NCBI GenBank assembly: GCA_964501355.1
Contig: CAZCSM010000006.1
Span: 2,347 to 66,346, forward strand
Length of the DNA: 64,000 bases
Direction of reading: 5' to 3'
Source of the DNA: an uncultured Candidatus Saccharibacteria bacterium
GTDB taxonomy: Bacteria > Patescibacteriota > Dojkabacteria > CAZCSM01
The position numbers and the translations under genes are program-made. The notes beneath the pieces are model-generated. The model had not been told where the DNA came from, did no database searches, and saw only the letters and a list, made by a program, of their open reading frames with translations. Position 1 is the stretch's first letter. Each line of letters opens with the position of its first letter. Of the stretch, positions 1 through 42,799 are shown in pieces.

Positions 1-504
1 CAGACTTTAATCAAGATAGGTGACGATCCATACGAGTTTCCTTATTTGCAGGTAATGGATAAATTTTCTCAAAAATCAAAAAGTAAGGATGCTATGAGAA
101 AGCCGGGCGTTGTTATCGCCGGAAGCGGAATGTGTACAGGTGGCAGAGTAGTTGGCCACATCAAGAGGAGAATAACAGACCCAAACTCTTCAATCGTTTT
201 TGTTGGATATCAAGCAAAGGATACACTAGGACGACAGATTCAGGAGAATATGGGAACTGTCACTATTGAGGATGTCGAATATATTGTTCGCGCAAAGATT
301 ATAACAATTTCCGGTTTCTCTGCACATGCCGATCAAAATGATCTTGTAAAATGGATTACGCGATTTGACAAGGACAGACTTAAGAAACTTTTTTTAGTTC
401 ATGGAGAAGAAGATTCATTGAATAATCTTGAAAAATTGGTTGAGAGCGAACTCGATACAGATATTTATATTCCAAAGATGGGGGAATCTTTTACTTTAGA
501 TTAA
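1..504 (+). CDS. C-terminal part of a metallo-beta-lactamase-fold (beta-CASP-like) RNA-metabolising hydrolase. The gene begins upstream of the window.
   Basis: The reading frame is open from base 1. The tail contains ISGFSAHADQNDL and LVHGEEDS, typical of the beta-CASP/RNase J-CPSF family C-terminus. Confidence 0.5.
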   Translation, partial: QTLIKIGDDPYEFPYLQVMDKFSQKSKSKDAMRKPGVVIAGSGMCTGGRVVGHIKRRITDPNSSIVFVGYQAKDTLGRQIQENMGTVTIEDVEYIVRAKIITISGFSAHADQNDLVKWITRFDKDRLKKLFLVHGEEDSLNNLEKLVESELDTDIYIPKMGESFTLD

Positions 505-510
505 ATACAT

Positions 511-1437
511 ATGAATCAGGTAGAGCGGATTATAGAAGATATAAAAAGTTTAAAAGTTCAAGGTGCAACTAATGTTGCGAAAGCTTGTTTGGAAGGTGTA
601 AAGGTTTTTGCAAACATGTACGAGGGTACAAACTCCGATGAGTTTTTAAATGAACTGAAAGTTGTCGCTTGGAAACTTGCAAGCTCAAGGCCAACTGAGC
701 CGTTGGCACGAAACCTGATTCGGTATGTTTTATCAAACATAACCGCTGATGATATAAACCAAATTCGTGATGTACAACTTGACGATTTGATAATGTCTGC
801 ATATCAAATGATAGAAAGTGCAAAGGTCGAGATAGTACAAAATGGTACAGATTTACTTCGAAACGTTGATGCAATATTGACGCATTGTCATTCTTCCACC
901 GCGACCAATATTATCAAGGGAGTTCATTCAAACTTCCCAGAGCTGAAGGTTTTTGCAACAGAAACGCGCCCTAGATATCAGGGTCGAATTACAGCGAAAG
1001 AGCTTTTAAGTGCGGGGATAGATACAACACTCGTTGTAGATTCTGCTTCATCAATGTTCATCACCTCAACCAAGCAGCCTGATGTTGATGCAATCATTAT
1101 TGGTTGCGATGAAATAACAAAAAGAGGTTCCGCAATAAATAAAATAGGTTCTCTAGATATTGCTCTTGCTGCGAAGTATGCTGGAAAACCCTTATATGTT
1201 GCTTCTTCTTTATTGAAGCTGGATCTTTCAACTGAAGATTTTGAGCCGACAATCGAGCTTCGTGATGCTCATGAAGTTTGGCCGGAAGCACCAGAAGGAT
1301 TGGAAATCGTAAATCCTGCATTTGAGATGGTTCCGCATTCACTCGTTACAGGATTCATTACTGAAGTCGGTGTTGTTATCCCTCAGGAATTACTTATTCG
1401 GGCCGAGGAAAAATACCCTTGGATGAAAGGTTATTAA
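511..1437 (+). CDS. eIF-2B alpha/beta/delta family protein, likely ribose-1,5-bisphosphate isomerase
   Basis: 308 aa with the IF-2B-like fold motifs GATNVAKACLEG, IIGCDEI and GSAINKIGS. It sits directly upstream of an AMP-phosphorylase-like gene. Confidence 0.6.
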   Translation: MNQVERIIEDIKSLKVQGATNVAKACLEGVKVFANMYEGTNSDEFLNELKVVAWKLASSRPTEPLARNLIRYVLSNITADDINQIRDVQLDDLIMSAYQMIESAKVEIVQNGTDLLRNVDAILTHCHSSTATNIIKGVHSNFPELKVFATETRPRYQGRITAKELLSAGIDTTLVVDSASSMFITSTKQPDVDAIIIGCDEITKRGSAINKIGSLDIALAAKYAGKPLYVASSLLKLDLSTEDFEPTIELRDAHEVWPEAPEGLEIVNPAFEMVPHSLVTGFITEVGVVIPQELLIRAEEKYPWMKGY

Positions 1438-1510
1438 TTTTGGCTTGTGATTTATTAACTTTTCTGTACTATATTGTTCTGGGAGTTTTAATTTAGGGAA
1501 TTTTGTTACT

Positions 1511-3013
1511 ATGGTTTTTTATCTTCGTGCAAAAAAGTTGGATGTGACTACTGGTGACATCTTAATCGCTACAATTAATGAAAAAGATGCTGAATTGCAT
1601 GGAGTTCGTGCCGGACAGAGTGTTCAGATTGGTTGGGGGCGAAATACCATGGTTGCAACAATTAATGTTACCGATACAGAAGTACAACCGGGAGAAGTTG
1701 GATTTTTCGAAGATGCTTGGGATCGATTTGAGGCAACTGAGGGAGATCCTTACGAAATTGTTCAAATACAAATATTACAATCTCCGGAATCTGTTAAGCA
1801 TATAATTAAGAAGCTAAAGGGTGGGAAACTCAATTTTGAGGAGATGTACGAAATAATGAAAGATATCTCGACTCATCGTTTAGGTACAATTGAAACAACA
1901 TACTTTGCCGCATGCGGATATAACCCAGGGTTTGACGAGGAAGAAATCTACTTTGCTACAAAAGCAATGGCGGAAACCGGCGACATGTTACGATTTGAAG
2001 GGATTGTTGCTGATAAGCATTCGGTTGGTGGTGTTCCTGGAAAAGGAGTAACCCCGATTGTTGTTCCAATCATAGCTACGGCTGGATTGATTGTTCCGAA
2101 CACTTCAACTCGAGCAATTACTTCTGCTAGTGCAACAACAGATATGTTGGAGGTGATTATGCCAATGGTTTTCACAAAAGAGCAAATTGAGGCTATGGTA
2201 ATGAAAACTGGTGCTTGTATGGTATGGGGTGGGGGACTTGAACTTGCACCTGCAGATGATGAGATGATTCGCGTTGAGAAACCTCTGAAGATTGAATCTT
2301 TCGATAAATTTGTGATTAGTATTTTGGCAAAGAAAGTTGCTCCAGGTATCCAATATCAACTTATCGATCTTCCATATGGTCCGGGAACAAAAATAAAAAA
2401 TCCTGACGATATTGAATATGTTGAGAAGTTGTTTAAGGAAATATCGGCCAAATTCGGTATCAAATTGGAGGTTTATAAAAGAAAACCTGTTGGTCCTGAT
2501 GGAAATGCAATTGGTCCAACATTAGAATGTCGAGAATTTCTACGAGTCCTTGAGCAAGATCCTGCACGAAGTCTTCAGCTCGAAAAGGTGTCTTTGGATA
2601 TGGCGGGAATGATTTTGGAAATGACGGGAAGAGCTGAGTCTGGAAAAGGCTTTGATATGGCCAAGGAAATATTAATTTCTGGAAAGGCACTGCAAAAATT
2701 TAAAGAGATTATTGAGGTTCAGGGCGGGAATCCCAACGTCGTATCTTCTGATTTGAGATTTGGTCCTTTGTCATACGATATAATTTCTCAAAAGACGGGA
2801 ACGATCCAGTTCATTGATAACAAGCGGGCGATGGATGTTTGTCGAGGATTGGGGAATCCGTATATTAAAGAATCCGGAATCTATTTCTATAAATCTCCTG
2901 GCCAGACGGTAAGTGTTGGTGAAAAGGTTGCGACGATTTATGCAACGACCCAGACGCGCTTGGAAATTGGAAAGGGCGTGTGGATGGAAAATGAGATTAT
3001 TAAGATAGTTTAA
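1511..3013 (+). CDS. AMP phosphorylase (thymidine phosphorylase family with an N-terminal extension)
   Basis: 500 aa. Pyrimidine-nucleoside phosphorylase motifs HSVGGVPGKGVTP and TSTRAITSASATTDMLE. The roughly 90-aa N-terminal extension is typical of archaeal-type AMPpase. Confidence 0.65.
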   Translation: MVFYLRAKKLDVTTGDILIATINEKDAELHGVRAGQSVQIGWGRNTMVATINVTDTEVQPGEVGFFEDAWDRFEATEGDPYEIVQIQILQSPESVKHIIKKLKGGKLNFEEMYEIMKDISTHRLGTIETTYFAACGYNPGFDEEEIYFATKAMAETGDMLRFEGIVADKHSVGGVPGKGVTPIVVPIIATAGLIVPNTSTRAITSASATTDMLEVIMPMVFTKEQIEAMVMKTGACMVWGGGLELAPADDEMIRVEKPLKIESFDKFVISILAKKVAPGIQYQLIDLPYGPGTKIKNPDDIEYVEKLFKEISAKFGIKLEVYKRKPVGPDGNAIGPTLECREFLRVLEQDPARSLQLEKVSLDMAGMILEMTGRAESGKGFDMAKEILISGKALQKFKEIIEVQGGNPNVVSSDLRFGPLSYDIISQKTGTIQFIDNKRAMDVCRGLGNPYIKESGIYFYKSPGQTVSVGEKVATIYATTQTRLEIGKGVWMENEIIKIV

Positions 3014-3036
3014 TAATCATAAATATTATATAATGC

Positions 3037-3063
3037 AGAAGAACCTTTAATTAGGTTCTTTTG
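3037..3063 (+). terminator. Rho-independent terminator after the AMPpase gene
   Basis: Hairpin agaacct-ttaatt-aggttct followed by TTTT. A second 9-bp hairpin, gttcctttt/aaaaggaac, lies at 3083-3106. Confidence 0.5.
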
Positions 3064-3230
3064 TTTGAAGAATAAAAGTTATGTTCCTTTTGACACCAAA
3101 AGGAACCAAAAGTGCTGAAACAACCCAAATCCAACAAATAGCAACCTTTTACACATAGCTACCGGAATGGGTTGTTCCAGACCTCGGCGGCTAACAACAA
3201 AAAGCAAATAACAAAGGGGATAAGAACAAT

Positions 3231-4160
3231 ATGAAAGTAAATTTTAGCTGGAACAATTTAAAAAAAGGATTTATTGCGCTTGCTCCTATGGCGGGGATCA
3301 CGGATTCTCCGTTTAGGGAGGTCTGTCGTTCCTATGGGGCGGATGTTGTGTTTACAGAATTTGTACATGTTCGCGGTGTTGCGGCTAGAAATGAGAAAAC
3401 TTTAAAACTTTTAAACTATAAAGATGAAGAGCGACCTGTAATTGCCCAGATATTCGGAAAAGAACCAGAGTATTTTCATAAAGCGGCAAAGGTTATTGAG
3501 GAACTTGGTTTTGATGGCGTTGATATCAATATGGGTTGTCCGGCTAGGAAAGTTAAAGAACATGGTTCCGGCTCAGCACTGCTTAAAGATTTGAACCTAG
3601 CAAAAGAGATTGTCATCGCAACAAAAGAAGCGGTTTCGCTCCCTGTTAGCGTAAAAACACGCTTGGGTACAAATGAATACGAAGGATTGGCTTTCACACA
3701 AGGTTTGGTTGAAGCCGGTGCGGATCTACTAACAATCCATGGGCGAACTGTTGGTCAACAATTTGGGGGCATCGCAGATCTTGACGCCATCGCTGATATT
3801 GCGAAGTCGGTCAACATTCCTGTAATCGGAAATGGTGATGTTGTGGATTATTCTTCATATCGTAAAATGATGGAAACTGGGTGTTTTGGTGTAATGATTG
3901 GTCGTGGAGCGTATGGAAATCCTTGGATTTTCAAATCGATTAAAGACAGGAAGGACTATGCGCCATCGATTGAAGAGTTAAAGAAAGAAATCTTGCACCA
4001 TGCATCTTTAGTTGAGAATTTTTTAGATGGGGATTTTCTGCCATTTCGAAAACACCTTGCATGGTATGTCAAGGGCTTACAAAATGCACGGAGCATTCGT
4101 GCAGAGCTAGTACAAATAAATAATTATTCTGATATACTGAAAATAATAGAGAAACTTTAA
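3231..4160 (+). CDS. dus: tRNA-dihydrouridine synthase
   Basis: DUS family TIM-barrel with flavin-binding motifs LAPMAGITDSPFR, NMGCP and IHGRT. Confidence 0.8.
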   Translation: MKVNFSWNNLKKGFIALAPMAGITDSPFREVCRSYGADVVFTEFVHVRGVAARNEKTLKLLNYKDEERPVIAQIFGKEPEYFHKAAKVIEELGFDGVDINMGCPARKVKEHGSGSALLKDLNLAKEIVIATKEAVSLPVSVKTRLGTNEYEGLAFTQGLVEAGADLLTIHGRTVGQQFGGIADLDAIADIAKSVNIPVIGNGDVVDYSSYRKMMETGCFGVMIGRGAYGNPWIFKSIKDRKDYAPSIEELKKEILHHASLVENFLDGDFLPFRKHLAWYVKGLQNARSIRAELVQINNYSDILKIIEKL

Positions 4161-4172
4161 AAATTTATCAAT

Positions 4173-5294
4173 ATGAGTAATCAAAAACGTGGATTTGGTA
4201 GGGGACATAACTTAAGTATCGGTATTGTTGGACTTCCTAATGTCGGAAAATCGACCTTGTTCAATGCTCTTACAAATATTAACGTCCCAGCAGAGAATTA
4301 TCCGTTTTGTACAATTGATCCTAACATAGGTATCGTTCAAGTTCCTGACGAACGACTTAATGTTCTGGCAAAGATTGTTGAGCCGGATAAAATAGTAAAT
4401 GCCGTTGTTAAATTTGTCGATATTGCCGGTCTTGTAAAAGGTGCGTCAAAAGGGGAGGGTCTTGGAAATCAATTCTTATCAAATATTCGTGAAGTTGATG
4501 CAATTGCTCATGTTATTCGATTCTTCAAAGACGATAATGTGATTCATGTTAGTAATAAAGTCGACCCGAAGGACGATGTCGAGGTCATAGAAACGGAGCT
4601 GGCCTTAAAAGATCTTGAAACTGTTGAAAAAAGATTTTCCGGATTGCAAAAAGTTCTAAAGACAGCAAAGGATGATTCTCTCGAAGCAACTGAATTTCGT
4701 GCACTGGAAAAAATAAAAGTTGTGTTGGAAGATGGCGCTTGTGCAAGAGATGTTGATTTGACCGATGATGAATATAATGTTCTCCGAAATCTCGGTTTGC
4801 TTACACTCAAGCCGATTATTTATGTTTTTAATACAAATGATTTGACAGTGGATATCGAGGAGATGAAAAAAACTGCCGGCATCGGAGAAAGTGAGTTGGC
4901 GATTAAACTTGATATCAAAATGGAATCTGATCTTACCGAAATGACTGATGATGAACGTGAGCTTTTTATGGAAGAACTCGGAATGGAAGAATCGGGATTA
5001 GAATCTCTCGCAAGAGCTTGCTACAATCTCTTGGGTCTACAGTCTTACTTTACCGCTGGAAAGATGGAAGTAAAGGCCTGGACTATTAATTCGGGAGAAA
5101 CCGCTCCACAGGCTGCCGGTAGAATTCATGGCGACTTTGAGAAAAAGTTTATTTGTGCAGAAGTCGTTGGATATAATGATTTTGTAGAATTTAACGGTTG
5201 GAACGGGGCAAGAGAAAAAGGAAAGTTGCGGATGGAGGGTAAGGACTACATTGTGAAAGACGGTGACATTATGGTGTTCAGACATGGTGCATAG
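4173..5294 (+). CDS. ychF: Ribosome-binding ATPase YchF (Obg-family GTPase)
   Basis: P-loop GIVGLPNVGKSTLFNALT and a C-terminal TGS-like domain, in a 373-aa protein. Confidence 0.85.
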   Translation: MSNQKRGFGRGHNLSIGIVGLPNVGKSTLFNALTNINVPAENYPFCTIDPNIGIVQVPDERLNVLAKIVEPDKIVNAVVKFVDIAGLVKGASKGEGLGNQFLSNIREVDAIAHVIRFFKDDNVIHVSNKVDPKDDVEVIETELALKDLETVEKRFSGLQKVLKTAKDDSLEATEFRALEKIKVVLEDGACARDVDLTDDEYNVLRNLGLLTLKPIIYVFNTNDLTVDIEEMKKTAGIGESELAIKLDIKMESDLTEMTDDERELFMEELGMEESGLESLARACYNLLGLQSYFTAGKMEVKAWTINSGETAPQAAGRIHGDFEKKFICAEVVGYNDFVEFNGWNGAREKGKLRMEGKDYIVKDGDIMVFRHGA

Positions 5295-5393
5295 TTTCTT
5301 TTTGGGTATTGTGAAATCTATTTTCATGTGGTAAACTACGCGAAGTTATGAAGTTATTTATAATAATCTATTTTTAGTTTGAGACGAGGGTAA

Positions 5394-5702
5394 ATGAACA
5401 AGTACGAAGTAATGGCAGTTTTAAAACCTCTTTTGCCAGATGATATTCGCAGAGGTACAATGGAAAAGATTGAGAAAACGGTAAAATCTCTAAAAGGTAA
5501 AGTCGTTGCATCCGAAGTTTGGGGCAAAAGACATTTAGCATATGAAATCTCCGGTCACTCTGATGGTTATTATGTTTTGTGGGGTATTGAACTTCCTGCA
5601 GAAGGTGTTGCAAAATTGGATAATGATATTAGACTTAATTCAGAAATCTTAAGACATATTATCTTGAGAACTGAAGAGTTTAATTTGACAGAGATTAAAT
5701 AA
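5394..5702 (+). CDS. rpsF: 30S ribosomal protein S6
   Basis: MNKYEVMAVLKP start, about 100 aa, first gene of the conserved rpsF-ssb-rpsR cluster. Confidence 0.85.
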   Translation: MNKYEVMAVLKPLLPDDIRRGTMEKIEKTVKSLKGKVVASEVWGKRHLAYEISGHSDGYYVLWGIELPAEGVAKLDNDIRLNSEILRHIILRTEEFNLTEIK

Positions 5703-8196: not shown

Positions 8197-9431
8197 GAAA
8201 AGAAGATTCAAAGACGCTATATTCGGTTGCAGGTGTTGTAATTGTTTCCCTGGCTACATTTATTTTCGGCTTGTCGCTGGGATTAAAACAAAGTAACGGT
8301 GCAGATACGATAACAAATTACAGGTTAACGGGGCTTCTTCAACCGGAAGAAAAAACGGAAGATTTGGATTTTACACTATTCTGGAACGTTTGGGATATTC
8401 TTGAAAATCATTATGTAGATAGTAATGTCGATGAGAAGCAGATGTTCGAGGGTGCAATAAAGGGTATGGTGTCTTCTCTTGAAGATCCTGCAACCTTATT
8501 TTACTCTTCTGAAGAAACTTCCGAATATGACAGAATAACTGCCGGTAATTTCGAAGGAATCGGTGCAGAACTAGGATATAGAAACAATCAGGTAATAATA
8601 AATTCTCCAATAAAAGGTTTTCCTGCCTTTGATGCTGGTGTAAGAGCAGGGGATTTAATAGTTGAGATTGATGGCGTAAGTACCGAGGGAATGGATATTT
8701 TGGAGGCAGTTATGAAAATTCGTGGAGAGAAAGGCACTGATGTCGTTCTTAAACTTTTGTCGTTAGGAGAAAGTGAACCACACTATACAACAATTACTCG
8801 AGGAACTATTCATGTTGACAGTGTTGCATGGTCGATGAAAGAAAACAACGTTGCTGTAATTGAACTTAGTCGTTTTACTGAAGATACATTGGCAAACTGG
8901 ATGTCACTTTGGGATAAAACTGTGGATGAAGTTGTTGCTCAAAATCCTGATAAATTAATTCTTGATTTAAGAGGGAATACCGGTGGCTACTTTGATGCAG
9001 CAATCTGGGCAGCAAGCGACTTCCTACCAAAGGGATCTGTCGTTTCCTATCAAAAGGATCGGGATGGAAATAATGAGGTTTTCTCTGTGAAGCGAGATGG
9101 AAAATTGTTAGATATCCCAATGATAATTTTAATTGATCAAGGAAGCGCTTCGGCATCGGAGATATTAGCAGGTGCATTGAAACATTATTCAAGAGGAACC
9201 ATTATTGGTGAGGAGTCATATGGAAAAGGTACGGCTCAGCAAATCTTAAACTTAGAGGATGGTTCTACTTTACACATCACAACTCAAAAGTGGTTGCTTC
9301 CAGATCAATCCTGGATTAATCATGAAAATAAGATAACACCTGACATCAAAGTCGAATTCCCACGAGAAGACTTTGAGAAGGGTCTAGATCCTCAAATGGA
9401 TAAAGCACTTGAGGAGATAAAGTCAAAATAA
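8193..9431 (+). CDS. ctpA: Carboxyl-terminal processing (S41) peptidase with PDZ domain
   Basis: N-terminal TM segment, PDZ segment GDLIVEIDGVSTEGM, and the S41 core LILDLRGNTGGY plus ASASEI. Confidence 0.8.
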   Translation: MRKEDSKTLYSVAGVVIVSLATFIFGLSLGLKQSNGADTITNYRLTGLLQPEEKTEDLDFTLFWNVWDILENHYVDSNVDEKQMFEGAIKGMVSSLEDPATLFYSSEETSEYDRITAGNFEGIGAELGYRNNQVIINSPIKGFPAFDAGVRAGDLIVEIDGVSTEGMDILEAVMKIRGEKGTDVVLKLLSLGESEPHYTTITRGTIHVDSVAWSMKENNVAVIELSRFTEDTLANWMSLWDKTVDEVVAQNPDKLILDLRGNTGGYFDAAIWAASDFLPKGSVVSYQKDRDGNNEVFSVKRDGKLLDIPMIILIDQGSASASEILAGALKHYSRGTIIGEESYGKGTAQQILNLEDGSTLHITTQKWLLPDQSWINHENKITPDIKVEFPREDFEKGLDPQMDKALEEIKSK

Positions 9432-9470
9432 GATATATCTTTTGTTGCAATTAATTTAGTTTCTTTCAAC

Positions 9471-10634
9471 ATGAAGATTAAAAAAATATCGCCTACATTT
9501 TTAACTTTTCTTGCGGGTTCTGCGACAACGTTTCTCTTAATTATTTCAATCTTCGGATCAAGTGTCTTTATCTTATCTCGAGGAGATAATTGGAATAAGT
9601 TTCTAGAACTGTTAAATTTACATGATAGTGTTACTGGTTCATTATCACAAACTCAAACTATATTAAATGAGGAATCCTCTATAATAGATGTCGTTTCAAA
9701 CGCAAGTTCAGCCGTCGTTAGCATTGCGGTTGAGCAGGTTGAATTCAGTCCTGTTTTGGGGCCACAGAATTCAGAGGATAATATTGGAACAGGATTTATA
9801 GTTACAGCTGAGGGTTTGATTGTAACCAATCAACATGTTGTTTCAGATCAAAAAGCTACTTACTCTGTAACGACTCAAGACAAAAAGACCTATGATGTTA
9901 CGAACATTTATCGTGATGAGGTCAATGATATTGCTTTAGTTAAGATTGATACTGCAGGAGATGAACTTCCATTTGTTGAGCTTGGAGATTCTGATGCGTT
10001 GAAAGTTGGTCAAATGGTTGTTGCAATCGGAACCCCTCTTGGAGATTATCCGGGTTCTGTAACAACAGGAATTGTAAGCGGTCTTGAAAGAACTGTTGAA
10101 ATCGGGTCCGGCTTCTGGTCGTCGTCAAAGGAATATGAAGGAGTAATTCAGACTGATGCTGCAATCAATCCTGGGAATTCCGGCGGTCCATTACTGAACT
10201 CAGCTGGTCAAGCAGTCGGAATCAATTTCGCAACGACATCCGGCGCAGATAATATTTCTTTTGCGATTCCAATTAACATTCTGAAGCAGAGGCTGGATGA
10301 CTTTGAAGCTCGTGGTGGTAAATTTGTCAAACCTTATTTAGGTGTTTCATATCAGCTTGTTGACGAATATGATGCTCTTCGTTTTCGTGTTCCGACGGGG
10401 GCTTTCATCGAAGATCTTGAAGAAGATGGTCCTGCTGAAAAGGGTGGAATTAGAGCTGGTGATATTGTTGTCGAGATGAATGGGAAAGATGTTTCAGGTG
10501 GATTACAAAATGTGATAATGACTTTTAATCCAGGAGAATCTGTTGAAATAAAGGTTTGGAGAAAAACAGGTGAAGACTACAGCGAAGGTGAATATATCGA
10601 TTTGAATGTCGAACTGGGTGAGGTAGAAGGCTAG
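9471..10634 (+). CDS. htrA: HtrA/DegP-family trypsin-like serine protease with C-terminal PDZ
   Basis: TM anchor, catalytic motifs TNQHVV, DIALVKI and GNSGGPLLN, and a C-terminal PDZ (GDIVVEMNG). Confidence 0.8.
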   Translation: MKIKKISPTFLTFLAGSATTFLLIISIFGSSVFILSRGDNWNKFLELLNLHDSVTGSLSQTQTILNEESSIIDVVSNASSAVVSIAVEQVEFSPVLGPQNSEDNIGTGFIVTAEGLIVTNQHVVSDQKATYSVTTQDKKTYDVTNIYRDEVNDIALVKIDTAGDELPFVELGDSDALKVGQMVVAIGTPLGDYPGSVTTGIVSGLERTVEIGSGFWSSSKEYEGVIQTDAAINPGNSGGPLLNSAGQAVGINFATTSGADNISFAIPINILKQRLDDFEARGGKFVKPYLGVSYQLVDEYDALRFRVPTGAFIEDLEEDGPAEKGGIRAGDIVVEMNGKDVSGGLQNVIMTFNPGESVEIKVWRKTGEDYSEGEYIDLNVELGEVEG

Positions 10635-23019: not shown

Positions 23020-24729
23020 ATGGCTATTAGCGTTGCCGAACTACAAAAAGCCCTTGTTGAGTCAAAAAAACTGAGTGCTGAGGATTTTGATAAAATTAAC
23101 GAAACCGCGAATCGGTTGAATTCTACCGTAGAGCAGGTTCTTCTCGGAAAGGGTTTCTTCTCAGAAGCCGAATTGGGAGCATTACTTGCGAAACGCTATG
23201 GTGTTGATTTTGTTGAATTAGGTAAGCAGGAAATCACTCCTGACATATTGTTCTCCATTCCAAAGGAAATTGCCAGTCGAAAGAAGGTTATTGTATTCGC
23301 TAAGGACCGCGGAATAATGAGTGTGGCAATGTCAAATCCCTTAGATTTGGAAACACTCGATTACATAAAGAAGAGTACAGGATATAACGTAAAGGTATAT
23401 TACGCATTTGAAGAAAGTATTAATGATGCTCTGCGTGCCTATCAAAAGGATATCAAGTTAGCTTTTGTAAATTTAATTGAGGAACAGGCCGAGAAGACAA
23501 AAAAAGAGAAGGGGGCTATTGAGGATGTTGCGAAAAAGATTCCTATTGTTAAGTTGGTTGACACGCTTATCGAATATGCTGTTAATGAGGGGGCCAGTGA
23601 TATTCACATTGAGCCTTTAGAAGAAGAGGTTTTGATTAGATACCGAATAGATGGACAGCTTAGAGATATAACTACGCTTCCAAAAGAAATTCTTCCCATT
23701 CTGATTGCAAGAATTAAAATCATTGCCAATTTACAAATAGATGAGCATCGTTTACCACAGGACGGAAGAATAAACACTATAGTTAACAATAGTAAAGTTG
23801 CTCTTCGAGTCTCTGTTCTTCCTCTATTCTACGGTGAGAAGATAGTGATGAGAGTTTTAGAAGAAACTGCACGGCGTTTCAGTTTGGAGGATCTAGGTGT
23901 TTTAAACCACAACCTCGAGGTTATGAAGAGAAATATCTCGAAGCCCCATGGAATGGTTTTGGTGACCGGGCCGACAGGTAGCGGAAAAACAACCACTCTT
24001 TACACGGTGCTTAGCATTCTCAATACAACTGATGTTAATATTAATACAATTGAAGATCCGATTGAATACAGTATGCCTCGAATCAACCAGACTCAGGTTA
24101 ATGCGAAAATCGGTTTTACATTTAGCGTTGGGTTGAGATCTCTTCTACGGCAGGACCCTGACATAATCATGGTCGGTGAAATTCGTGACAAGGAAACTGT
24201 ACAAATGGCTGTCAATGCTGCAATGACGGGCCACCTTGTTCTGTCCACATTACATACAAATAATGCAGCAGCATCTATCCCGCGTCTTTTGGATATGGGT
24301 GTTGAACCATTTCTTGTAGCTTCAACGCTAAATGCTGTAATGGCTCAGCGATTAACTCGGAAACTTTGTAACGAATGTAAGGAAAAGTATGAGATTCCCG
24401 AGAAGCTGCTAGCGAGCCTTAAAACAGATCTTGAAAAACAAGGATTAACTGCTGCACAGATAAAAGAGGCTGTGGGAGACGGTCATTTCTACAAACCCAT
24501 TGGTTGCAAAAAATGCGGCAATAAAGGTTACAAGGGACGACTTGGTATCTACGAGGTCTTAGAGATGTCCCCAAAGATTATGGAATTAGCTGTATCTGAT
24601 GTCGTTACATATGAGCTTCAAAAGACCGCTATTAAGGAAGGTATGACTACAATGTTATATGATGGAATTACAAAGGCTCGCGAAGGTTTGACCACTTTAG
24701 AAGAAGTATTAGCCGCAACTAGAGAATAA
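23020..24729 (+). CDS. pilB: Type IV pilus assembly ATPase PilB (GspE family), locus 1
   Basis: N-terminal GSPII_E_N domain, Walker A VTGPTGSGKTTTLY, Asp/His boxes, and a tetracysteine CNEC...CKKCG. Confidence 0.85.
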   Translation: MAISVAELQKALVESKKLSAEDFDKINETANRLNSTVEQVLLGKGFFSEAELGALLAKRYGVDFVELGKQEITPDILFSIPKEIASRKKVIVFAKDRGIMSVAMSNPLDLETLDYIKKSTGYNVKVYYAFEESINDALRAYQKDIKLAFVNLIEEQAEKTKKEKGAIEDVAKKIPIVKLVDTLIEYAVNEGASDIHIEPLEEEVLIRYRIDGQLRDITTLPKEILPILIARIKIIANLQIDEHRLPQDGRINTIVNNSKVALRVSVLPLFYGEKIVMRVLEETARRFSLEDLGVLNHNLEVMKRNISKPHGMVLVTGPTGSGKTTTLYTVLSILNTTDVNINTIEDPIEYSMPRINQTQVNAKIGFTFSVGLRSLLRQDPDIIMVGEIRDKETVQMAVNAAMTGHLVLSTLHTNNAAASIPRLLDMGVEPFLVASTLNAVMAQRLTRKLCNECKEKYEIPEKLLASLKTDLEKQGLTAAQIKEAVGDGHFYKPIGCKKCGNKGYKGRLGIYEVLEMSPKIMELAVSDVVTYELQKTAIKEGMTTMLYDGITKAREGLTTLEEVLAATRE

Positions 24730-25952
24730 TGAAATTTAAATATACAGTTACAGACAAAAAGGGGCAGGTTGTAAAAGGCGAGATGGTTGCTCGAACACAG
24801 TCAGAGATTGAATCCAATCTTCTGGAGGATGGTTATACTGTTTTGGCGATTGAGCCGGAAAAGGAATCGTCGGAATCTTCAAAAAAACAATCCGCACTTT
24901 TTCAAAAGAAAATTTCGTTACAGGAAAAGATTCTTCTTTTCACAAACTTGGCGGCAATGCTTAAGGCTGGATTGCCTGTTGTTGATGCGATTGATGTCCT
25001 AAAGGAAGGTCAAAAGAATCAGAGATTGATAGAAATACTAGATGTAGCAAGTTATGACATCCAGGGTGGTATGACCTTTCATTCCGCATTGAGCAAGTTT
25101 CCCGATGTTTTTACGACAATGGACCTTAGTATGTTTGAAGTCGGAGAAGTAGGAGGTATGTTAGAAGAGAATATCAGAACGCTGGCAACAGAATTAAAGA
25201 ATCAAAAAGATCTTCAGTCGAAAGTAAAAGGTGCAATGATGTACCCTATGGTGATTTCAATTGCTTTGGTGGCAATCGTAATATTGCTTATTATTTTCGT
25301 AATACCGCAGATTGCAGGCTTTTTCAAAGACGCTGATTTGGAGTTGCCAATTACAACAAGAATGTTAATCGGATTAAGTGACCTTCTTATAAATTATGGC
25401 ATATATGTTCTCGCGGTTGTAATTGCTGCCATAGTTGCTTTTCGCACAACATATAAGAAAGTAAAGAATTTCAAGCGGATGATTGACGGACTATTATTAA
25501 AGATTCCATTTGTTGGTGTTCAGATTATTAAATTAAATACAGCAAGATTTACAAAAACGTTAGCATCTCTTTTAAAAAGCGGAGTTCCAATTATTCGTTC
25601 TTTGGAAATTACGAAAAATGGCTTTTCTAATTTGATTTATCAAGAGGCTCTTGAAAGTATTGCTCAAGATATTGAATCTGGTCAAGAACTTGCAGATGCG
25701 ATGGCAAAGTTTCCAAACATCTTTTACTCAATGGCTGTTAGGATGGTAAGAGTAGGGGGGCAGACGGGAACTATCGACGAATCTCTACTAAACGTGGCGA
25801 TATATTATCAAGAAGAAGTCACGGAAATTCTCGACAACTTATCCTCTATTATAGAACCTGTTTTATTACTTGTAATGGGTGGTGGAATTGCACTAATTGC
25901 ATTATCTGTACTTGGACCTATTTATCAATTAACCGGGAGTATATCTCAGTAA
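24729..25952 (+). CDS. pilC: Type IV pilus inner-membrane platform protein PilC (GspF family)
   Basis: Two T2SSF repeats and three TM segments. Translationally coupled to pilB. Confidence 0.85.
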   Translation: MKFKYTVTDKKGQVVKGEMVARTQSEIESNLLEDGYTVLAIEPEKESSESSKKQSALFQKKISLQEKILLFTNLAAMLKAGLPVVDAIDVLKEGQKNQRLIEILDVASYDIQGGMTFHSALSKFPDVFTTMDLSMFEVGEVGGMLEENIRTLATELKNQKDLQSKVKGAMMYPMVISIALVAIVILLIIFVIPQIAGFFKDADLELPITTRMLIGLSDLLINYGIYVLAVVIAAIVAFRTTYKKVKNFKRMIDGLLLKIPFVGVQIIKLNTARFTKTLASLLKSGVPIIRSLEITKNGFSNLIYQEALESIAQDIESGQELADAMAKFPNIFYSMAVRMVRVGGQTGTIDESLLNVAIYYQEEVTEILDNLSSIIEPVLLLVMGGGIALIALSVLGPIYQLTGSISQ

Positions 25953-26417
25953 ATGAAAATGCAAAGGGGTTTTACAATGATTGAGATTATCGTTGTTATC
26001 GGCGTCTTAATGCTAATCTCGTCAGGTGCAACAATTCTTTTCCTATCAACTCAGGCAAACAATCAAAGAGAGGTAATAGTGAATGAATTAATCTCCTCTT
26101 TGCGAAAAGCTCAATCCCGAGCCATAAACGGAGAAAATCAATCCGAATTCGGTATATATTTTGAAGAGCACAAATATATCGAATTCCAGGGGGCAAGCTA
26201 TATGGAGGGTAATCCAGATAATATCGTGAACCTGTTGCCAGCTGGTGTCACTATTCGCAATATCAACTTTAATGGCGACGATTTTGTTTATTATGAAAGA
26301 ATGACGGGAGAAGCTAATTATGAGGGGAGCGTTGATATTGCTGTAGTTGGAATTGCTGATGCAAAGAGGATCTCTGTCAATAAATCAGGTATTGTAAATC
26401 TTGAGATTGTTGAATAA
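25953..26417 (+). CDS. Prepilin-type N-terminal cleavage/methylation-domain minor pilin
   Basis: RGFTMIEIIVVIGVLMLI matches the class III signal G/FTxxE. Confidence 0.7.
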   Translation: MKMQRGFTMIEIIVVIGVLMLISSGATILFLSTQANNQREVIVNELISSLRKAQSRAINGENQSEFGIYFEEHKYIEFQGASYMEGNPDNIVNLLPAGVTIRNINFNGDDFVYYERMTGEANYEGSVDIAVVGIADAKRISVNKSGIVNLEIVE

Positions 26418-26910
26418 CCCAAAATTGATGTTTAAGAATCAGCAAGGTGCTCTACTAATAGAGTTTTTAATTGTTCTTGCCCTGATTTCGATATTACTAA
26501 CTTCTGGTTTAGACATTCTAGGACCTAGCTTAAAGATTGTTTATCAGAGTGAGGAACGTGAATTTGTATCTTCTTTGATCCAGGAACAATTTGAGGTTGT
26601 TCGAAGCATTCGCGATGAAGATTGGAATGCTTTGTCAATAAATGGCACATATCATTATGAAGACATTGAGGGTGAAGAGGAAGGTTTGCGTCTGGTTGAG
26701 GATCCGATTACGTATTATGATAAATATGAAGTAGGTATTACACTCTCAGATGTTTATCGAGATTCAAACGGGGAGATTCTTGAGACTGGAGATTTAGATC
26801 AAATTGATACATATACTCGCATGATTTCAGTGTCTGTTTCTTGGGACTCATATGGCGTTTTAAAAAATGAAGTTCAAAGTATTTATCTAACAAATTGGGG
26901 TGATTTTTAG
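26401..26910 (+). CDS. Minor pilin-like protein
   Basis: QGALLIEFLIVLALISILL is a prepilin-like hydrophobic N-terminus with Glu at +5. Confidence 0.55.
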   Translation: MRLLNNPKLMFKNQQGALLIEFLIVLALISILLTSGLDILGPSLKIVYQSEEREFVSSLIQEQFEVVRSIRDEDWNALSINGTYHYEDIEGEEEGLRLVEDPITYYDKYEVGITLSDVYRDSNGEILETGDLDQIDTYTRMISVSVSWDSYGVLKNEVQSIYLTNWGDF

Positions 26911-27415
26911 AAAAGATTTAAAAAGTAATAATGATCAGGCAGGATTTACCCTTGTCGAGGTAATTATCTACATTGCCGTGTCCTCGGTAATGCTCATTAT
27001 TGTAGTTTCGTTCGTGCGCCATATCTTATTGGTAAGAAATAAAGTGACCATTTTATCCAAGGTGCAACAGAATGCTCGATATGCAATGACAAGGATGGTA
27101 AAAGAGGTGCGATATGCGGATGATTTGGAAGTTGTAGATCAGAATACTTTGAGACTTTCCGTAGGAGATCCACTTAGAAATCCATTGTATTTTGATTTAC
27201 AGGGAGGGGTTCTATATATGAAAGAGGGTCTTGGCGATTTCGTCGCAATAACAGGGAATGATGTGAAGGTTGGCGATGTGCTTTTTGAAGACCGTACAAC
27301 TCCAAATTCTGCAGACATTGTAAAAATAACTCTAACCATCTCACATCCTGACGCGAGTGTCTCTCCTGACAGTCAGGCAACTATTAATCTAGATACATAT
27401 GTGGCAAAAAGGTAA
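26900..27415 (+). CDS. Minor pilin (PulJ/PilW-like)
   Basis: AGFTLVEVIIYIAVSSVML prepilin signal. Confidence 0.65.
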   Translation: MIFRKDLKSNNDQAGFTLVEVIIYIAVSSVMLIIVVSFVRHILLVRNKVTILSKVQQNARYAMTRMVKEVRYADDLEVVDQNTLRLSVGDPLRNPLYFDLQGGVLYMKEGLGDFVAITGNDVKVGDVLFEDRTTPNSADIVKITLTISHPDASVSPDSQATINLDTYVAKR

Positions 27416-28715
27416 GTATTCACAATTTAATAAAGAGAAAGGGCAGGTCGCAATTATTGCCGTGTTAGTAGTTTCTCTAATTATGGTTTCCGTTGTTTTT
27501 GCAATCTCGAAAATGTCTCTGGATAATTATGAGATGGCTGACCTAAGTCTCTCATCCACTCAGGCATATTTTTTAGCAGAATCTGGAATAGAGGAGGGGA
27601 TTTACAGACTGAAAGATGATTTGAACTATACAGGAGGGAATTACGATACTCCTATTGGGAATTATGTAATCGAAGTCACCGATAATACGACATATTACAC
27701 AGTTCGTGCAGAAGGACATGTTGGTGGTGTGGTTCGTGCAATTACAGCAAATCTTTCAATATCCGTTGAGAGTGCAAAGATAACTGGCTATTCAGCTTTT
27801 GCAGGAGATGACGTATGGATGTTTTGGTCTAATGCAATTGTTAATGGTGACGTATGGGCGAATGACGATGTCGATTTTTCTAGTAATTCTACCGTATATG
27901 GTGATGTCATTTCTGCTGGGCGTGGAAGTTATTTTACAAGCTGGGTTTCTGATCATGCAAGTATTCTTGATAACCCGGCAACCGCAGATCGAGTTGAAGG
28001 TAACTTCTGGTCGGTAAATCAGATAAGGGTTATTTTAGAAGGGCGGGTTGCGGGAGATGCTTACAGTGAGAATGAAATAATTACTTTGCTTGGTGGTCAT
28101 ATTGATGGAACAGAATATCCGGATCAGGATTTAACGGCAGAAACAGAGCGCATAGAGGTTCCGATGTTTGATTTTTCAACGTATGAGGCACAAGCACAAG
28201 CGGGAGGAACTTTCTATGCAACGGCAACTCAATTCGAAAACTACGTTAATAGTAGGAATGATGGGAGCACTCGCACTCTTCCTGATGGAGTATATTACAT
28301 TAGAAACGGTAATGTGTTTTTTAATCCAGGGCCCCCAATTGTACTTAATGGAAGCATTATTACAGAAGGTGAGATCCGATTCTACTGTGGAGTTCAAATA
28401 AATGCTCAAAATAATTTGCCGGCGCTTGCGGCTGCAAAAGACGCAGAATTCAGAGATTACGGATGGCCAACATATGGTGGTGACTTTGTAACAATAAATG
28501 GTGTATTATATTCTGAGAGAGATATAATCTTAAGACACGATAGCAGCGGAAAGCTAATTGAGGTTAATGGTGCTGCTTGGGCTGGTGACGATTTGCGAAT
28601 CGAAAACTCCAGTACAGTGAATTTTTTGCCGGAAGTAACACAGAATGTCATCGGCTTTGGTTTTACAGTAGAGCCAGGACAGGTTTCAATAGATAATTGG
28701 CAAGAAACATTATAA
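27399..28715 (+). CDS. PilX/PilY-like large pilus-associated protein
   Basis: N-terminal EKGQVAIIAVLVVSLIMV pilin-like anchor, then a 400-aa Asp/Gly-rich beta domain. Confidence 0.4.
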   Translation: MWQKGKYSQFNKEKGQVAIIAVLVVSLIMVSVVFAISKMSLDNYEMADLSLSSTQAYFLAESGIEEGIYRLKDDLNYTGGNYDTPIGNYVIEVTDNTTYYTVRAEGHVGGVVRAITANLSISVESAKITGYSAFAGDDVWMFWSNAIVNGDVWANDDVDFSSNSTVYGDVISAGRGSYFTSWVSDHASILDNPATADRVEGNFWSVNQIRVILEGRVAGDAYSENEIITLLGGHIDGTEYPDQDLTAETERIEVPMFDFSTYEAQAQAGGTFYATATQFENYVNSRNDGSTRTLPDGVYYIRNGNVFFNPGPPIVLNGSIITEGEIRFYCGVQINAQNNLPALAAAKDAEFRDYGWPTYGGDFVTINGVLYSERDIILRHDSSGKLIEVNGAAWAGDDLRIENSSTVNFLPEVTQNVIGFGFTVEPGQVSIDNWQETL

Positions 28716-28725
28716 AATAAAATCT

Positions 28726-30465
28726 ATGACTGCCCTAGATTTTGACAAGTTAATAGAAGGTGAAGATACTTTCGGTTTGGACATTTCCAATACGAGAGTA
28801 AAAGCTATGTGGGTCACGAAATCCGGGAGAAGCAATTTACATCTTCAGAGTTTTGGTGAAGAAACAATTCCTGCAAGTGCTGTCGTAGGTGGAATAATTC
28901 GTCGTCCTGAAGTCGTTGCAGAGGCAATTAAAAAAATACTCAAAAATTCATATCCGAAACCAATTCGGACGAAATATGCCATCTGCTCAATCTCTCAAGA
29001 AAAGGTTTACCTAAAGATTGAGGATTTTCCAAATATTGAAAAGGAGAAACTTCGAGAAGCTGTCACTTGGAAAGCAAACAAGGTTCTTGCAATGCCTTTG
29101 GAAAAGATTTACTGGGATTGGCACAGACTTAATCCAAAGGAAGATGAAAGTACGGTGAGTATTCAGTTTGCAGCCGTGGAAAAGGAAGTTGTCGACTCAT
29201 ATGTCCATGCAATTCGCCTTGCCGGAATTATTCCTCTCGCATTTGAAATGGAGTCAAGTGCTGCAGGACGAGTTCTTCTAGCATCAAATGAAGAGCTTAA
29301 AGAGTCTCCATTGTTATTTGTTGATATCGGAAATAGCAATACAAATCTCTCGATTTATCATCAAGGTGGTTTTCGTTTTAATTCTTCAGTAAATGTCGGA
29401 GGAAATCAAGTAACAAAGATCATTGGTACAGAAAAAGGATTATCTCCCGTCGAGGCGGAGGAGTATCAGCGCACAACAGGACTAAAAACTAAAACAGAAA
29501 CTCTTCAATCCGCGCTTTCTGCTTCTCTCACACCAATAATCTCCGAGATGATGGGTGCAATGCGCTTCTATGATAAAACACCGGGAAAAGAAGATGACAT
29601 TAAATTGGCGAAAGTTTATGGGGATGGTGCATCGCTTAAGGGCGTCGATAAATACCTTGATGAACAGATTCCGGATCTGAAAGTGGGGTATGCAAACCCA
29701 AGTATTGGGATGATTCCGATTCCTCAATTTATTTCCCATGAGAAAATATTTCCGCATCTGGTTGTTACGGGGCTAGCGCTGAAGGGCCTCGGCAAATATC
29801 ATGAATTTGGAGATGTTAACTTCCTTCCTGCGGACGTCCAGAAAGCTTATGTAAATGAGCAGCTTAAAAAGAAAGTTGGAAATATCGTTAAGATTTTATC
29901 AATAAATATAATTGCGATTTGTGGATTCTTGTTGGGTGGACTATTTCTTCTTACTGAGGAATCGAGTCAAATCCAAGCAACAATTAATTCGAAAAAGGCG
30001 ATTCTGCAAGGTTCAAGTATTCAAACAAAGTCATTGGAGATTAGCAAATTCAATGAATCCCTTGCATCGATAAGCTCTATAATAAATTCCGAATTTGATT
30101 GGATAAAAATCTTCGATAAGATCCTTTCTGTAACTCCGGGAAATGTCGTGTTGGATAATATTGATATATATGTAGATGAGTCTTTGGCTCCGAAATCAGA
30201 ACCTATCTGGATTATTAGTCTATATGGTAGAACTGATAATAGACAAACTGTAATTGATTACAGTACAAATCTAATTTCAACGGAAGTTTTCTCAAATGTA
30301 CAAATTCCCGTTTCGGCTTTTTCTTCCGGTGAAGAGGTTGAATTTCGTATTAACATGGATCTGAGCTTTACGAATTTATTGGCAAATCCAGAAAACTTTG
30401 CTAAGAAATCTACAACACAAACAACTGGAGAATTAGAACTTAAACCTTTCACGCCTGCAAAATGA
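28726..30465 (+). CDS. pilMN: PilM-PilN fusion protein
   Basis: N-terminal FGLDISNTRVKAMWV actin-like PilM fold. One TM segment at about aa 390. A PilN-like periplasmic C-terminus. Confidence 0.65.
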   Translation: MTALDFDKLIEGEDTFGLDISNTRVKAMWVTKSGRSNLHLQSFGEETIPASAVVGGIIRRPEVVAEAIKKILKNSYPKPIRTKYAICSISQEKVYLKIEDFPNIEKEKLREAVTWKANKVLAMPLEKIYWDWHRLNPKEDESTVSIQFAAVEKEVVDSYVHAIRLAGIIPLAFEMESSAAGRVLLASNEELKESPLLFVDIGNSNTNLSIYHQGGFRFNSSVNVGGNQVTKIIGTEKGLSPVEAEEYQRTTGLKTKTETLQSALSASLTPIISEMMGAMRFYDKTPGKEDDIKLAKVYGDGASLKGVDKYLDEQIPDLKVGYANPSIGMIPIPQFISHEKIFPHLVVTGLALKGLGKYHEFGDVNFLPADVQKAYVNEQLKKKVGNIVKILSINIIAICGFLLGGLFLLTEESSQIQATINSKKAILQGSSIQTKSLEISKFNESLASISSIINSEFDWIKIFDKILSVTPGNVVLDNIDIYVDESLAPKSEPIWIISLYGRTDNRQTVIDYSTNLISTEVFSNVQIPVSAFSSGEEVEFRINMDLSFTNLLANPENFAKKSTTQTTGELELKPFTPAK

Positions 30466-31103
30466 AACAAGAAGAAGTAAAACAAATAAAAAAGCAAAAT
30501 CCAAACCAATATTATATTGTGGTAGGGTTATTTGTAGTTTCTCTCGTAGGATTATTAATCTTTAGCTATTCGCAGTTGAAGAAATCCGCGACAAAAGTCT
30601 CCGATCAACTTGCTCTGTTGAATCAGTATGCCCTGGAAGAGGCTAAGATTAATAAGCTTTTAAGTGATCATGGTGAGGTTGAGGAACAGTCATTACTTCT
30701 TACAGAAGCAATCCCAGATAAGGGGAAATTGGTGAGCTTCATTGAGAACATAGAGAAGATTGGAGAAATGCTAAATCTGGATTTAGATGTAAGACTAAAA
30801 GAGGGCGTTGTTGACGAAGATGGTGTGGTTGTTGATGTCGAATCTGAGGCAACAAAACGCGTAACTGCATATGCAGGAATATCCTCAGTGGAAGTATTGG
30901 AGGTCGGAGTTTCTGTGCGTACAGATCCGGATGAGTTTGACAAGATAATAAACTTTATCGGTATGCTCGAAGATCTTAAATATTATTCGAGAATTGTTGA
31001 TATGAAATTTATTTCTGGGTTAGACGATCGAGATGGGAGATATTATCTCGATAGTATTTTCACATTAAATTTATATGTTAAAGCCGGTACAGAATCAAAG
31101 TGA
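30462..31103 (+). CDS. pilO: PilO-like bitopic inner-membrane pilus alignment protein
   Basis: Single N-terminal TM, coiled-coil and a C-terminal alpha/beta domain. Sits after pilMN in the locus. Confidence 0.45.
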   Translation: MKQEEVKQIKKQNPNQYYIVVGLFVVSLVGLLIFSYSQLKKSATKVSDQLALLNQYALEEAKINKLLSDHGEVEEQSLLLTEAIPDKGKLVSFIENIEKIGEMLNLDLDVRLKEGVVDEDGVVVDVESEATKRVTAYAGISSVEVLEVGVSVRTDPDEFDKIINFIGMLEDLKYYSRIVDMKFISGLDDRDGRYYLDSIFTLNLYVKAGTESK

Positions 31104-31402: not shown

Positions 31403-31484
31403 CTTCCCCCTGAACTCAAGATTTCTACATTTAACTTGTTAAGATTCGTGTGCGTTCGCTGTATTGTCTTTTTTTCTGCAATAG

Positions 31485-31515
31485 AAAAATCCCCTATAGA
31501 ATAGGGGATTTTTCA
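31485..31515. terminator. Bidirectional rho-independent terminator between pilus locus 1 and the convergent pilA
   Basis: Perfect palindrome AAAAATCCCCTATAGAATAGGGGATTTTT with A and T runs on both sides. Confidence 0.6.
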
Positions 31516-31536
31516 TGCTTACCTTGGAAATAGATC

Positions 31537-42707: not shown

Positions 42708-42745
42708 CGGATAAGTTGAGGAAAAGTAACACTTTCATTAATAAT

Positions 42746-42774: not shown

Positions 42775-42799
42775 CAATTGATTGAACTAATAATTAATC

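Follow-up and report, generated by a model that had tools for sequence, protein, structure and literature searches.

What becomes of ribulose-1,5-bisphosphate (RuBP) in a bacterium in which two genes for making it stand side by side and no RuBisCO gene accompanies them? This question is raised by a stretch of 64,000 nucleotides from an uncultured bacterium of the Dojkabacteria (contig CAZCSM010000006.1; the whole stretch is called the window below). Two genes on its plus strand are concerned, i.e., a gene for a protein of 308 aa at 511..1437, a predicted ribose-1,5-bisphosphate (R15P) isomerase (e2b2, eIF-2B family) of the type found in the candidate phyla radiation (CPR); and a gene for a protein of 500 aa at 1511..3013, a predicted AMP, or nucleoside monophosphate (NMP), phosphorylase with the family-specific N-terminal domain (about residues 1-95). 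The strandless intergenic spacer of 73 bp that separates them (1438..1510) is called the slot here: in related loci, it holds a gene for a form III RuBisCO or a RuBisCO-like protein. Taken as a whole, the explanation that we lean towards, rather than assert, is that the pair works, that the RuBisCO gene once present in the slot was removed, and that RuBP is used by a RuBisCO encoded elsewhere in the genome.

Directly upstream, on the same strand, lie the C-terminal 167 codons of a beta-CASP/RMMBL metallo-hydrolase RNase gene (1..504, Pfam Beta-Casp and RMMBL), which ends 6 bp before the isomerase start. This gene is truncated by the left edge of the window, its reading frame being open from base 1; the full protein has 456 aa, as read from the identical sequence in Logan contigs (L005/L006). 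A sequence-only reading of this DNA had described an eIF-2B-family gene adjoining a thymidine-phosphorylase-family gene with an N-terminal extension, and a beta-CASP-type RNase immediately upstream; the open reading frames (ORFs) are exactly as it claimed. The same gene order recurs in independent assemblies from at least six samples, and the junctions are thus not assembly artefacts.

Identity of the Isomerase

In the isomerase, the IF-2B domain (PF01008) is full-length: the match of 203 bits covers positions 1-279 of a 280-position profile. Its top NCBIfam model is that of the R15P isomerases (TIGR00511, residues 3-302 aligned with positions 1-299 of 301), at 209.8 bits, i.e., below the equivalog cut-off of 314.1. 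Most of the models for MtnA, the methylthioribose-1-phosphate isomerase, give 150-175 bits (165 for TIGR00512), and they expect 30-40 additional N-terminal residues that the window protein does not have. Known structures rank in the same way, with 152 bits to the Pyrococcus horikoshii and Thermococcus kodakarensis R15P isomerases (5YFJ/3A11) versus 111 bits to Bacillus subtilis MtnA. Identity to the Thermococcales enzymes is only about 35%.

The ligand and catalytic residues were taken from the P. horikoshii structures, in which the 1-phosphate is held by Arg22, Arg65, Gln166, and Lys215, and the 5-phosphate by the side chains of Ser137 and Lys240 (PMC5789824). The catalytic pair is kept: C126 and D200 align to C135 and D204 of P. 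horikoshii (C133 and D202 in T. kodakarensis), positions confirmed by the PDB mutant chains D204N and C135S. The sugar ligands N210 and K211 are conserved, and both 5-phosphate ligands are present (S128 and K236), within the C-H-S motif of R15P isomerases; three annotated MtnA proteins, all from plasmids, have C-N-A instead, and a threonine in place of Lys236. Models, structures, and the residues Ser128 and Lys236 thus all place the protein with the R15P isomerases and apart from MtnA, as the sequence-only reading had anticipated.

Two differences from the archaeal enzyme were found. Among the 1-phosphate ligands, R60, Q157, and K211 are kept and the arginine equivalent to Arg22 is replaced by Gln17. 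In addition, none of the eight residues of the P. horikoshii AMP-activator site is conserved (L115, S181, T185, R205, G225, P227, P246, and T280); this site characterizes the Thermococcales enzymes and not the family in general. Both changes occur in all CPR homologues examined (window, L001-L003, L007, L008, L013, L020, L025, and L077), and Gln17, within the motif IQGATNV, is found even in the two (L020 and L025) that are encoded beside a canonical RuBisCO. Hence, these are best taken as traits of the CPR subgroup and not as the sign of a changed role in the window. To judge from these residues, regulation of the CPR R15P isomerases probably differs from that of their archaeal counterpart, and AMP is unlikely to activate the window isomerase as it does that of P. 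horikoshii.

Identity of the Phosphorylase

In the phosphorylase, the Pfam domains Glycos_trans_3N (PF02885), Glycos_transf_3 (PF00591), and PYNP_C (PF07831) all lie from about residue 98 onward and are preceded by an N-terminal extension of about 95 aa. This extension is covered by the alignment with the T. kodakarensis AMP phosphorylase (4GA5, 314 bits, residues 9-486 against 7-479 of the chain), whereas the pyrimidine nucleoside phosphorylase (PyNP) and thymidine phosphorylase chains of the PDB align only from about residue 96, with 102 bits for the best PyNP and 51 bits for the Escherichia coli thymidine phosphorylase. Two NCBIfam models are passed (subfamily NF003338, 454.4 bits for a cut-off of 434; TIGR02645, 437.4 for 434.6). 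The AMP_phos equivalog TIGR03327 reaches 451.7 bits, below its cut-off of 535, against 170 bits for Y_phosphoryl and 104 for T_phosphoryl. In a neighbor-joining (NJ) tree rooted on annotated PyNP and DeoA proteins, the window protein falls in a clade of bootstrap 100 with the T. kodakarensis enzyme, together with an annotated AMP phosphorylase of Natrialba, a Pacearchaeota homologue, and a proteobacterial "thymidine phosphorylase family" protein. It therefore does not group with DeoA and the thymidine phosphorylases, again in line with the earlier reading. Its closest named relatives are Candidatus Dojkabacteria and Patescibacteria. The scan of GTDB representatives gave relatives at 49% and 39% identity; an identical phosphorylase is recorded on one NCBI contig of 69,605 bp, most of which the window covers; and the Logan matches of the isomerase are contigs of 2.3-2.5 kb.

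Homology, residues, and phylogeny thus identify both genes, and models and structures agree with them in making the pair the predicted front end of the archaeal and CPR route from AMP through R15P to RuBP, the pathway that the sequence-only reading had proposed. Because both proteins score below the equivalog cut-offs (210 for 314 and 452 for 535), they are to be seen as divergent CPR members and not as close orthologues of the archaeal enzymes.

Many metagenomic AMP-phosphorylase homologues (L029-L086) align only from about residue 94-108 and are therefore without the N-terminal domain. This agrees with the N-terminal deletion of about 80 aa reported in Gottesmanbacteria (PMC6389311). Within the stored flank of these loci, no isomerase or RuBisCO match lies upstream of the phosphorylase.

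RuBisCO in the Window and in Related Loci

RuBisCO was searched for with a T. kodakarensis RbcL probe, validated against the PDB (1023 bits to 1GEH), where it finds forms I, II, and III at E<1e-79. Over the six frames of the window, the best tblastn match has E=13 and the best phmmer --max match E=0.43, and none of the active-site motifs KDDE, HRAxH, and GGGxxGH is present. The slot itself, with its 73 bp, is too short for a recognizable relic. RuBisCO is thus absent from the window, as had been stated from the sequence alone, and from the syntenic region of the window's clade (see below).

About 100 related loci were collected by exact-protein look-ups and by scans of genome and metagenome collections, and their gene order was established by a tblastn census. 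The beta-CASP, isomerase, and phosphorylase genes are directly adjacent in 15 loci. In six others (L003, L020, L025, L087, L089, and L090, two of them with beta-CASP upstream), a RuBisCO gene of 1.2-1.4 kb sits between the isomerase and the phosphorylase. The minor types are two isomerase-phosphorylase loci with the upstream part cut off, one RuBisCO-phosphorylase locus, and one beta-CASP-phosphorylase locus, and many more-distant phosphorylases have neither an isomerase nor a RuBisCO nearby. The clearest comparison is offered by L090, in which the order is CysS, CCA-adding enzyme, beta-CASP, isomerase, RuBisCO, and phosphorylase; in three members of the window's clade (L002, L091, and L093), it is CysS, CCA-adding enzyme, beta-CASP, isomerase, phosphorylase, Dus, YchF, and bS6. 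The sequence-only reading had named a form II/III RuBisCO as the usual partner. In the nearest relatives with a linked RuBisCO, its gene lies between the two others and its type is form III (NCBIfam type III, "Form III-c" in the source names), not II/III.

Beyond the sequenced loci, linkage of RuBisCO and phosphorylase was deduced from contigs of equal bp in two match lists. These lists hold the best 120 matches per search with form III-like queries, and form II/III or III-like RuBisCOs on other contigs would be missed. By this means, 26 further phosphorylase matches (44-55% identity) were found on contigs equal in bp to form III RuBisCO contigs. Such links were verified directly for P0011/L087 and P0060/L003 and, on the RuBisCO side, for L089 and L090.

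Two large contigs show more dispersed arrangements. On a 952-kb contig (L088, Ga0233431_1000003), the phosphorylase is without isomerase or RuBisCO, and the beta-CASP gene is nearby, separated from it by two large FlgD_ig/Por_Secre_tail proteins. On another of 495,627 bp (L102, ERZ28615714 scaffold_1), the isomerase adjoins a RuBisCO and there is no phosphorylase; its neighbors are PrgI/TraC-like genes and a recombinase/phage-like island.

History of the Slot

A phosphorylase NJ tree of 136 sequences (100 bootstraps, a simple distance method) places the window in a 10-member clade of bootstrap 100. The slot is empty, with a spacer of 65-73 bp, in all six members with a readable context (window, L001, L002, L007, L091, which is basal, and L093). 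The sister group (61 leaves, support 100) contains clade A, whose slot holds a canonical RuBisCO; clade B1, where a RuBisCO-like gene occupies it; B2, with L077, in which the slot is empty; and B3, with the lone phosphorylase of the 952-kb contig. Among the deeper branches, L020 and L025 have RuBisCO in the slot, and in the L008 group the slot is empty. The distances between RuBisCOs correlate with those between phosphorylases across the 24 loci in which the two are linked (Mantel r=0.79, 0 of 5000 permutations). This correlated divergence, together with the presence of RuBisCO in the slot in the sister group and in deeper branches, suggests that, in this part of the tree, the cluster was passed on as one unit, and empty slots would then be deletions or relocations and not the ancestral state. 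As far as simple distance methods go, this argues for loss rather than repeated gain of the slot RuBisCO. The block of beta-CASP, isomerase, RuBisCO, and phosphorylase would have been transmitted together in a Dojkabacteria-like group, and RuBisCO would have been removed from between the pair on the stem of the window's clade.

The two remaining genes are under strong purifying selection. Both ORFs are intact in all six organisms of the clade, in which amino acid identity is 61-87% for the isomerase and 70-81% for the phosphorylase. This conservation equals that of bS6, YchF, RF1, and SSB and exceeds that of the flanking beta-CASP RNase and Dus. Between the window and L001, the nonsynonymous divergence (dN) is 0.084 for the isomerase and 0.124 for the phosphorylase; since the synonymous divergence (dS) is saturated, the dN/dS ratio of less than about 0.05 is to be read as an upper level only.

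Lys201-Substituted Proteins in the Slot of Relatives

The essential lysine that is carbamylated in RuBisCO, Lys201, is missing in nine of the 181 RuBisCO matches collected. Five have K201R (L003/P0122, P0123, P0124, P0126, and L090/P0135) and, where the link is known, their contigs are those of phosphorylase clade B1. Two more can be assigned to the contig of a phosphorylase, i.e., K201Q (P0243, on the 4,513-bp contig of P0017) and K201F (P0246, on the 8,686-bp contig of P0013), and the remaining two (P0242 and P0170) have K201M and K201L. The substituted proteins keep K175, K177, D203, R295, and S379; several of them additionally lose H298, K334, or E204, and the HRAMH motif is often disrupted. 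Against the type III RuBisCO model (cut-off 497), the K201R protein of L003 (gene at 8575-9942) scores 409 versus 537 for the canonical in-slot RuBisCO of L087 (1308-2657); another K201R gene located in a slot is that of L090 (10001-11323). They have the appearance of non-carboxylating RuBisCO-like proteins embedded in an operon. For form III-c sequences, the only changes described are minor ones at a single aspartate (Jaffe et al. 2019, PMC6389311), and K201-substituted in-slot RuBisCOs were not found in PMC5113843, in PMC6389311, or by a full-text literature search.

Fate of RuBP

The phosphorylase would convert an NMP and inorganic phosphate into R15P and the free base, the isomerase would turn R15P into RuBP, and the pair would form the front end of the archaeal and CPR "AMP pathway", or NMP shunt. 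That another place in the genome encodes the RuBisCO that then uses up RuBP, be it the relocated gene or a laterally acquired replacement form, seems to us the likelier case, if not by far; its product, 3-phosphoglycerate (3-PGA), would enter lower glycolysis. Several observations lead to this preference. Both genes are present in all CPR genomes that have RuBisCO, and in the peregrinibacterial genome PER-1 the phosphorylase adjoins the isomerase while RuBisCO lies at another locus (PMC5113843). Dojkabacteria often carry several RuBisCO forms, some of them gained laterally, with two forms in one genome (PMC6389311); RuBisCO is thus a mobile gene in this group. In haloarchaea, NMP phosphorylase is found only in species having RuBisCO (PMC9700705). 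Published Dojkabacteria genomes are without upper glycolysis or the pentose phosphate pathway, and the 3-PGA that RuBisCO makes is stated to be their way into energy metabolism (PMC5113843). Finally, the dispersed arrangements of L088 and L102 point in the same direction.

Other observations weigh against a RuBisCO elsewhere or against parts of this scenario. For none of the members of the window's clade could a RuBisCO be found, nor was there one in about 74 kb of syntenic sequence (the window and 10 kb upstream in L093); the contigs of the clade (69.6, 42.6, 28.3, 26.6 kb, and others) share their length with no contig carrying any of the 181 listed RuBisCO matches. The loss of Lys201 from in-slot proteins of sister lineages suggests that carboxylation is dispensable in this group. 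The node that joins the window's clade to its sister has 68% support in what are simple NJ trees. The isomerase has glutamine for the 1-phosphate ligand Arg22 and no AMP-activator site, traits that we attribute above to the CPR subgroup. Promoter and terminator scans over 1-5500 stay at chance level, so that co-transcription is unsupported by signals. Some of these points favor another reading, in which the enzymes are the same, the lineage is without a functional RuBisCO, and RuBP has a RuBisCO-independent fate. The slot is indeed empty in all six clade members with context, the basal one included, and the pair is nevertheless still under strong purifying selection; Lys201 disappeared on three or more separate occasions (as K201R in clade B1, as K201Q in the P0017 contig, and as K201F in the P0013 contig); the slots of L077 and the L008 group are also empty, on 115-kb and 133-kb contigs that likewise match no listed RuBisCO contig; and use of R15P isomerase without RuBisCO is proven in haloarchaea (PMC9700705). 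However, the haloarchaeal RuBisCO-free route runs without NMP phosphorylase, an enzyme found there only alongside RuBisCO (PMC9700705), and published Dojkabacteria enter energy metabolism through the 3-PGA made by RuBisCO (PMC5113843). HAD-type phosphatases, class II (FucA) aldolases, PfkB-type kinases, and PRK are all missing from the window, and neither these phosphatases and aldolases nor any sugar kinase or PRK came up in Pfam scans of 20 otherwise unassigned ORFs; in particular, the enzymes of the non-carboxylating pathway (HAD RuBP phosphatase, FucA-type ribulose-1-phosphate aldolase, and ribose-1-phosphate kinase) have no candidate among its ORFs. Moreover, the window represents only about 10% of a genome of about 0.6-0.9 Mb. 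We thus regard a RuBisCO-free fate as possible but doubtful. The same tentative standing applies to the wider proposal that the nucleotide-ribose shunt and carboxylation have come apart in a sub-lineage of Dojkabacteria, the slot RuBisCO being deleted here and disabled at Lys201 in several sister lineages. If this were true, RuBP would have an undescribed fate in bacteria, being consumed by a new enzyme or used by the K201R RuBisCO-like protein in a non-carboxylating reaction.

The history of the slot could also be read in reverse, the pair alone being ancestral and RuBisCO having been inserted laterally in other lineages, with nothing lost here. Such a reversal bears on history alone and would fit a RuBisCO elsewhere as well as a RuBisCO-free metabolism. 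[quoted passage not shown] We nevertheless find it unlikely, since RuBisCO would have had to enter precisely one intergenic position again and again, being found there in clade A and clade B1 as well as in the deep L020/L025 branch, and since the divergences of linked RuBisCOs and phosphorylases are strongly correlated (the Mantel test above). That the genes are instead ordinary housekeeping paralogues, MtnA for methionine salvage and DeoA/PyNP, could be argued from the MtnA-type model TIGR00524 (203.5 bits for a subfamily cut-off of 185.85) and from the "thymidine phosphorylase" label that some databases give to relatives. This reading is effectively refuted and is given almost no credence here: Ser128 and Lys236, specific to R15P isomerases, stand where MtnA has alanine and threonine, the N-terminal 30-40 residues of MtnA are missing, no mtnK lies nearby, and the phosphorylase has the AMP-phosphorylase N-domain and is separated from PyNP and DeoA with bootstrap 100. 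Just as improbable is that the pair is a decaying remnant left by the loss of RuBisCO, or that the adjacency is an artefact of assembly or binning. Nothing speaks for it beyond the missing third gene, whereas the ORFs are intact in six organisms and conserved at the level of ribosomal proteins under the low dN/dS given above, and the arrangement is identical across independent assemblies, samples, and pipelines. A working pair that feeds a RuBisCO encoded elsewhere therefore stays our preferred reading.

The Beta-CASP RNase Neighbor

Co-transcription of the pair with the beta-CASP gene upstream is probable, and this RNase could provide 5'-NMPs by degrading RNA. Indeed, a beta-CASP gene lies immediately upstream of the isomerase or module in 17 CPR loci. 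A similar gene ("MBL fold RNA-specificity domain") also precedes a related "thymidine phosphorylase family" gene on the Sphingobium cloacae plasmid pSCLO_2 (L099, locus 1-2231), where a PRPP synthetase gene follows. Conserved adjacency makes this role as a source of 5'-NMPs plausible, and it suggests that RNA breakdown and the NMP shunt are directly linked at the genetic level. Neither PMC5113843 nor PMC6389311 was found to mention the conserved RNase neighbor, and a full-text literature search returned no paper on the link. A role of this protein in CRISPR or defence was considered and rejected: the Cas14 model gives 427 for a cut-off of 800 and aCPSF1 311 for 580, which leaves a generic beta-CASP protein. 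PADLOC gave no defence-system match for the RNase, the isomerase, or the phosphorylase.

Other Features of the Window

The window has a low GC content (about 0.33-0.41) and contains densely packed bacterial housekeeping genes and two type IV pilus clusters. The phosphorylase is followed, on its 3' side, by DusB, YchF, bS6, SSB, and bS18. In a relative with 70% identity (L002, 8105-9225), YchF is called as two ORFs (171 and 202 aa) versus a single 373-aa gene in the window, which may be either a frameshift or pseudogene or an assembly error.

The two pilus clusters (23020-31998 and 50289-63812) comprise PilB/GspE ATPases, PilC, PilT, PilM, a prepilin peptidase, and many pilin-like ORFs. The second one includes a gene for a 23S rRNA-intervening-sequence protein (53265-53633) and, at its end, two large proteins with DUF4215 repeats (59093-62320). 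At 36571-39280 are found an integrase-like ORF, an ORF of 207 aa without Pfam match, and an AbiEii-family nucleotidyltransferase toxin; this stretch coincides with the GC minimum of the window (0.33 at 38-40 kb) and may be a small mobile or toxin-antitoxin island. At 40746-50195 lies a minus-strand block (VanW-like, GyrA, GyrB, PSP1, a delta-prime-like ORF, and PP2C-like), over which the GC skew is reversed (negative at 42-50 kb and positive elsewhere). The block and the skew reversal are consistent with an inverted segment or a replication landmark.

Comparison with Known Systems

MtnA and DeoA/PyNP belong to the same superfamilies and folds as the two proteins of the window, and the catalytic cysteine and aspartate are common to MtnA and the isomerase. 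The window proteins differ from them by the 5-phosphate serine and lysine (alanine and threonine in MtnA), by the extra N-domain of the phosphorylase, and by a separate phylogeny. The haloarchaeal non-carboxylating pentose bisphosphate pathway (Sato et al. 2022, PMC9700705), in which R15P isomerase works without RuBisCO, is the only proven precedent for a RuBisCO-free use of RuBP. In that pathway, R15P comes from ribose-1-phosphate kinase and not from NMP phosphorylase, and a RuBP phosphatase and a ribulose-1-phosphate aldolase are needed, neither of which is found in the window.

Another related system is the AMP pathway of T. kodakarensis, i.e., the NMP shunt of its pentose bisphosphate pathway (Sato 2007; Aono 2012, 2015; structures 4GA4-6, 3A11, 3VM6, and 5YFJ). 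The domain architecture of both enzymes is alike, including the phosphorylase N-domain, and the catalytic cysteine and aspartate and the sugar and phosphate ligands of the Thermococcales isomerase are kept save for the change of Arg22 to glutamine. The window differs from the Thermococcales by the roughly 35% identity of its isomerase, the sub-equivalog scores, the complete absence of the AMP-activator residues, and the lack of a nearby RuBisCO.

The two enzymes are also those of the nucleoside/AMP pathway known from CPR, in work that explicitly covers Dojkabacteria (Wrighton et al. 2016, PMC5113843; Jaffe et al. 2019, PMC6389311). The published isomerase-RuBisCO-phosphorylase order recurs in the six relatives with RuBisCO in the slot, and an adjacent phosphorylase and isomerase with RuBisCO at another locus are already known from PER-1. 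The pathway and its presence in Dojkabacteria being already published, the pair itself is not new, and as found it is a further example of this pathway, of mainly confirmatory value. Unlike in those papers, a whole well-supported clade is here without RuBisCO at the conserved position, and none can be linked to the clade. This clade-wide absence from a conserved operon position, together with the Lys201-substituted proteins of relatives, is the unusual point and a modestly interesting lead. Dojkabacteria are described as almost without central metabolism beyond the passage of 3-PGA from RuBisCO into lower glycolysis; if the clade were truly without RuBisCO, a member keeping the two upstream enzymes would need a new use for RuBP. 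In any case, the series found in one conserved operon (canonical RuBisCO, Lys201-substituted protein, and empty slot) constitutes a natural experiment on the loss or repurposing of RuBisCO and points to concrete proteins for assay.

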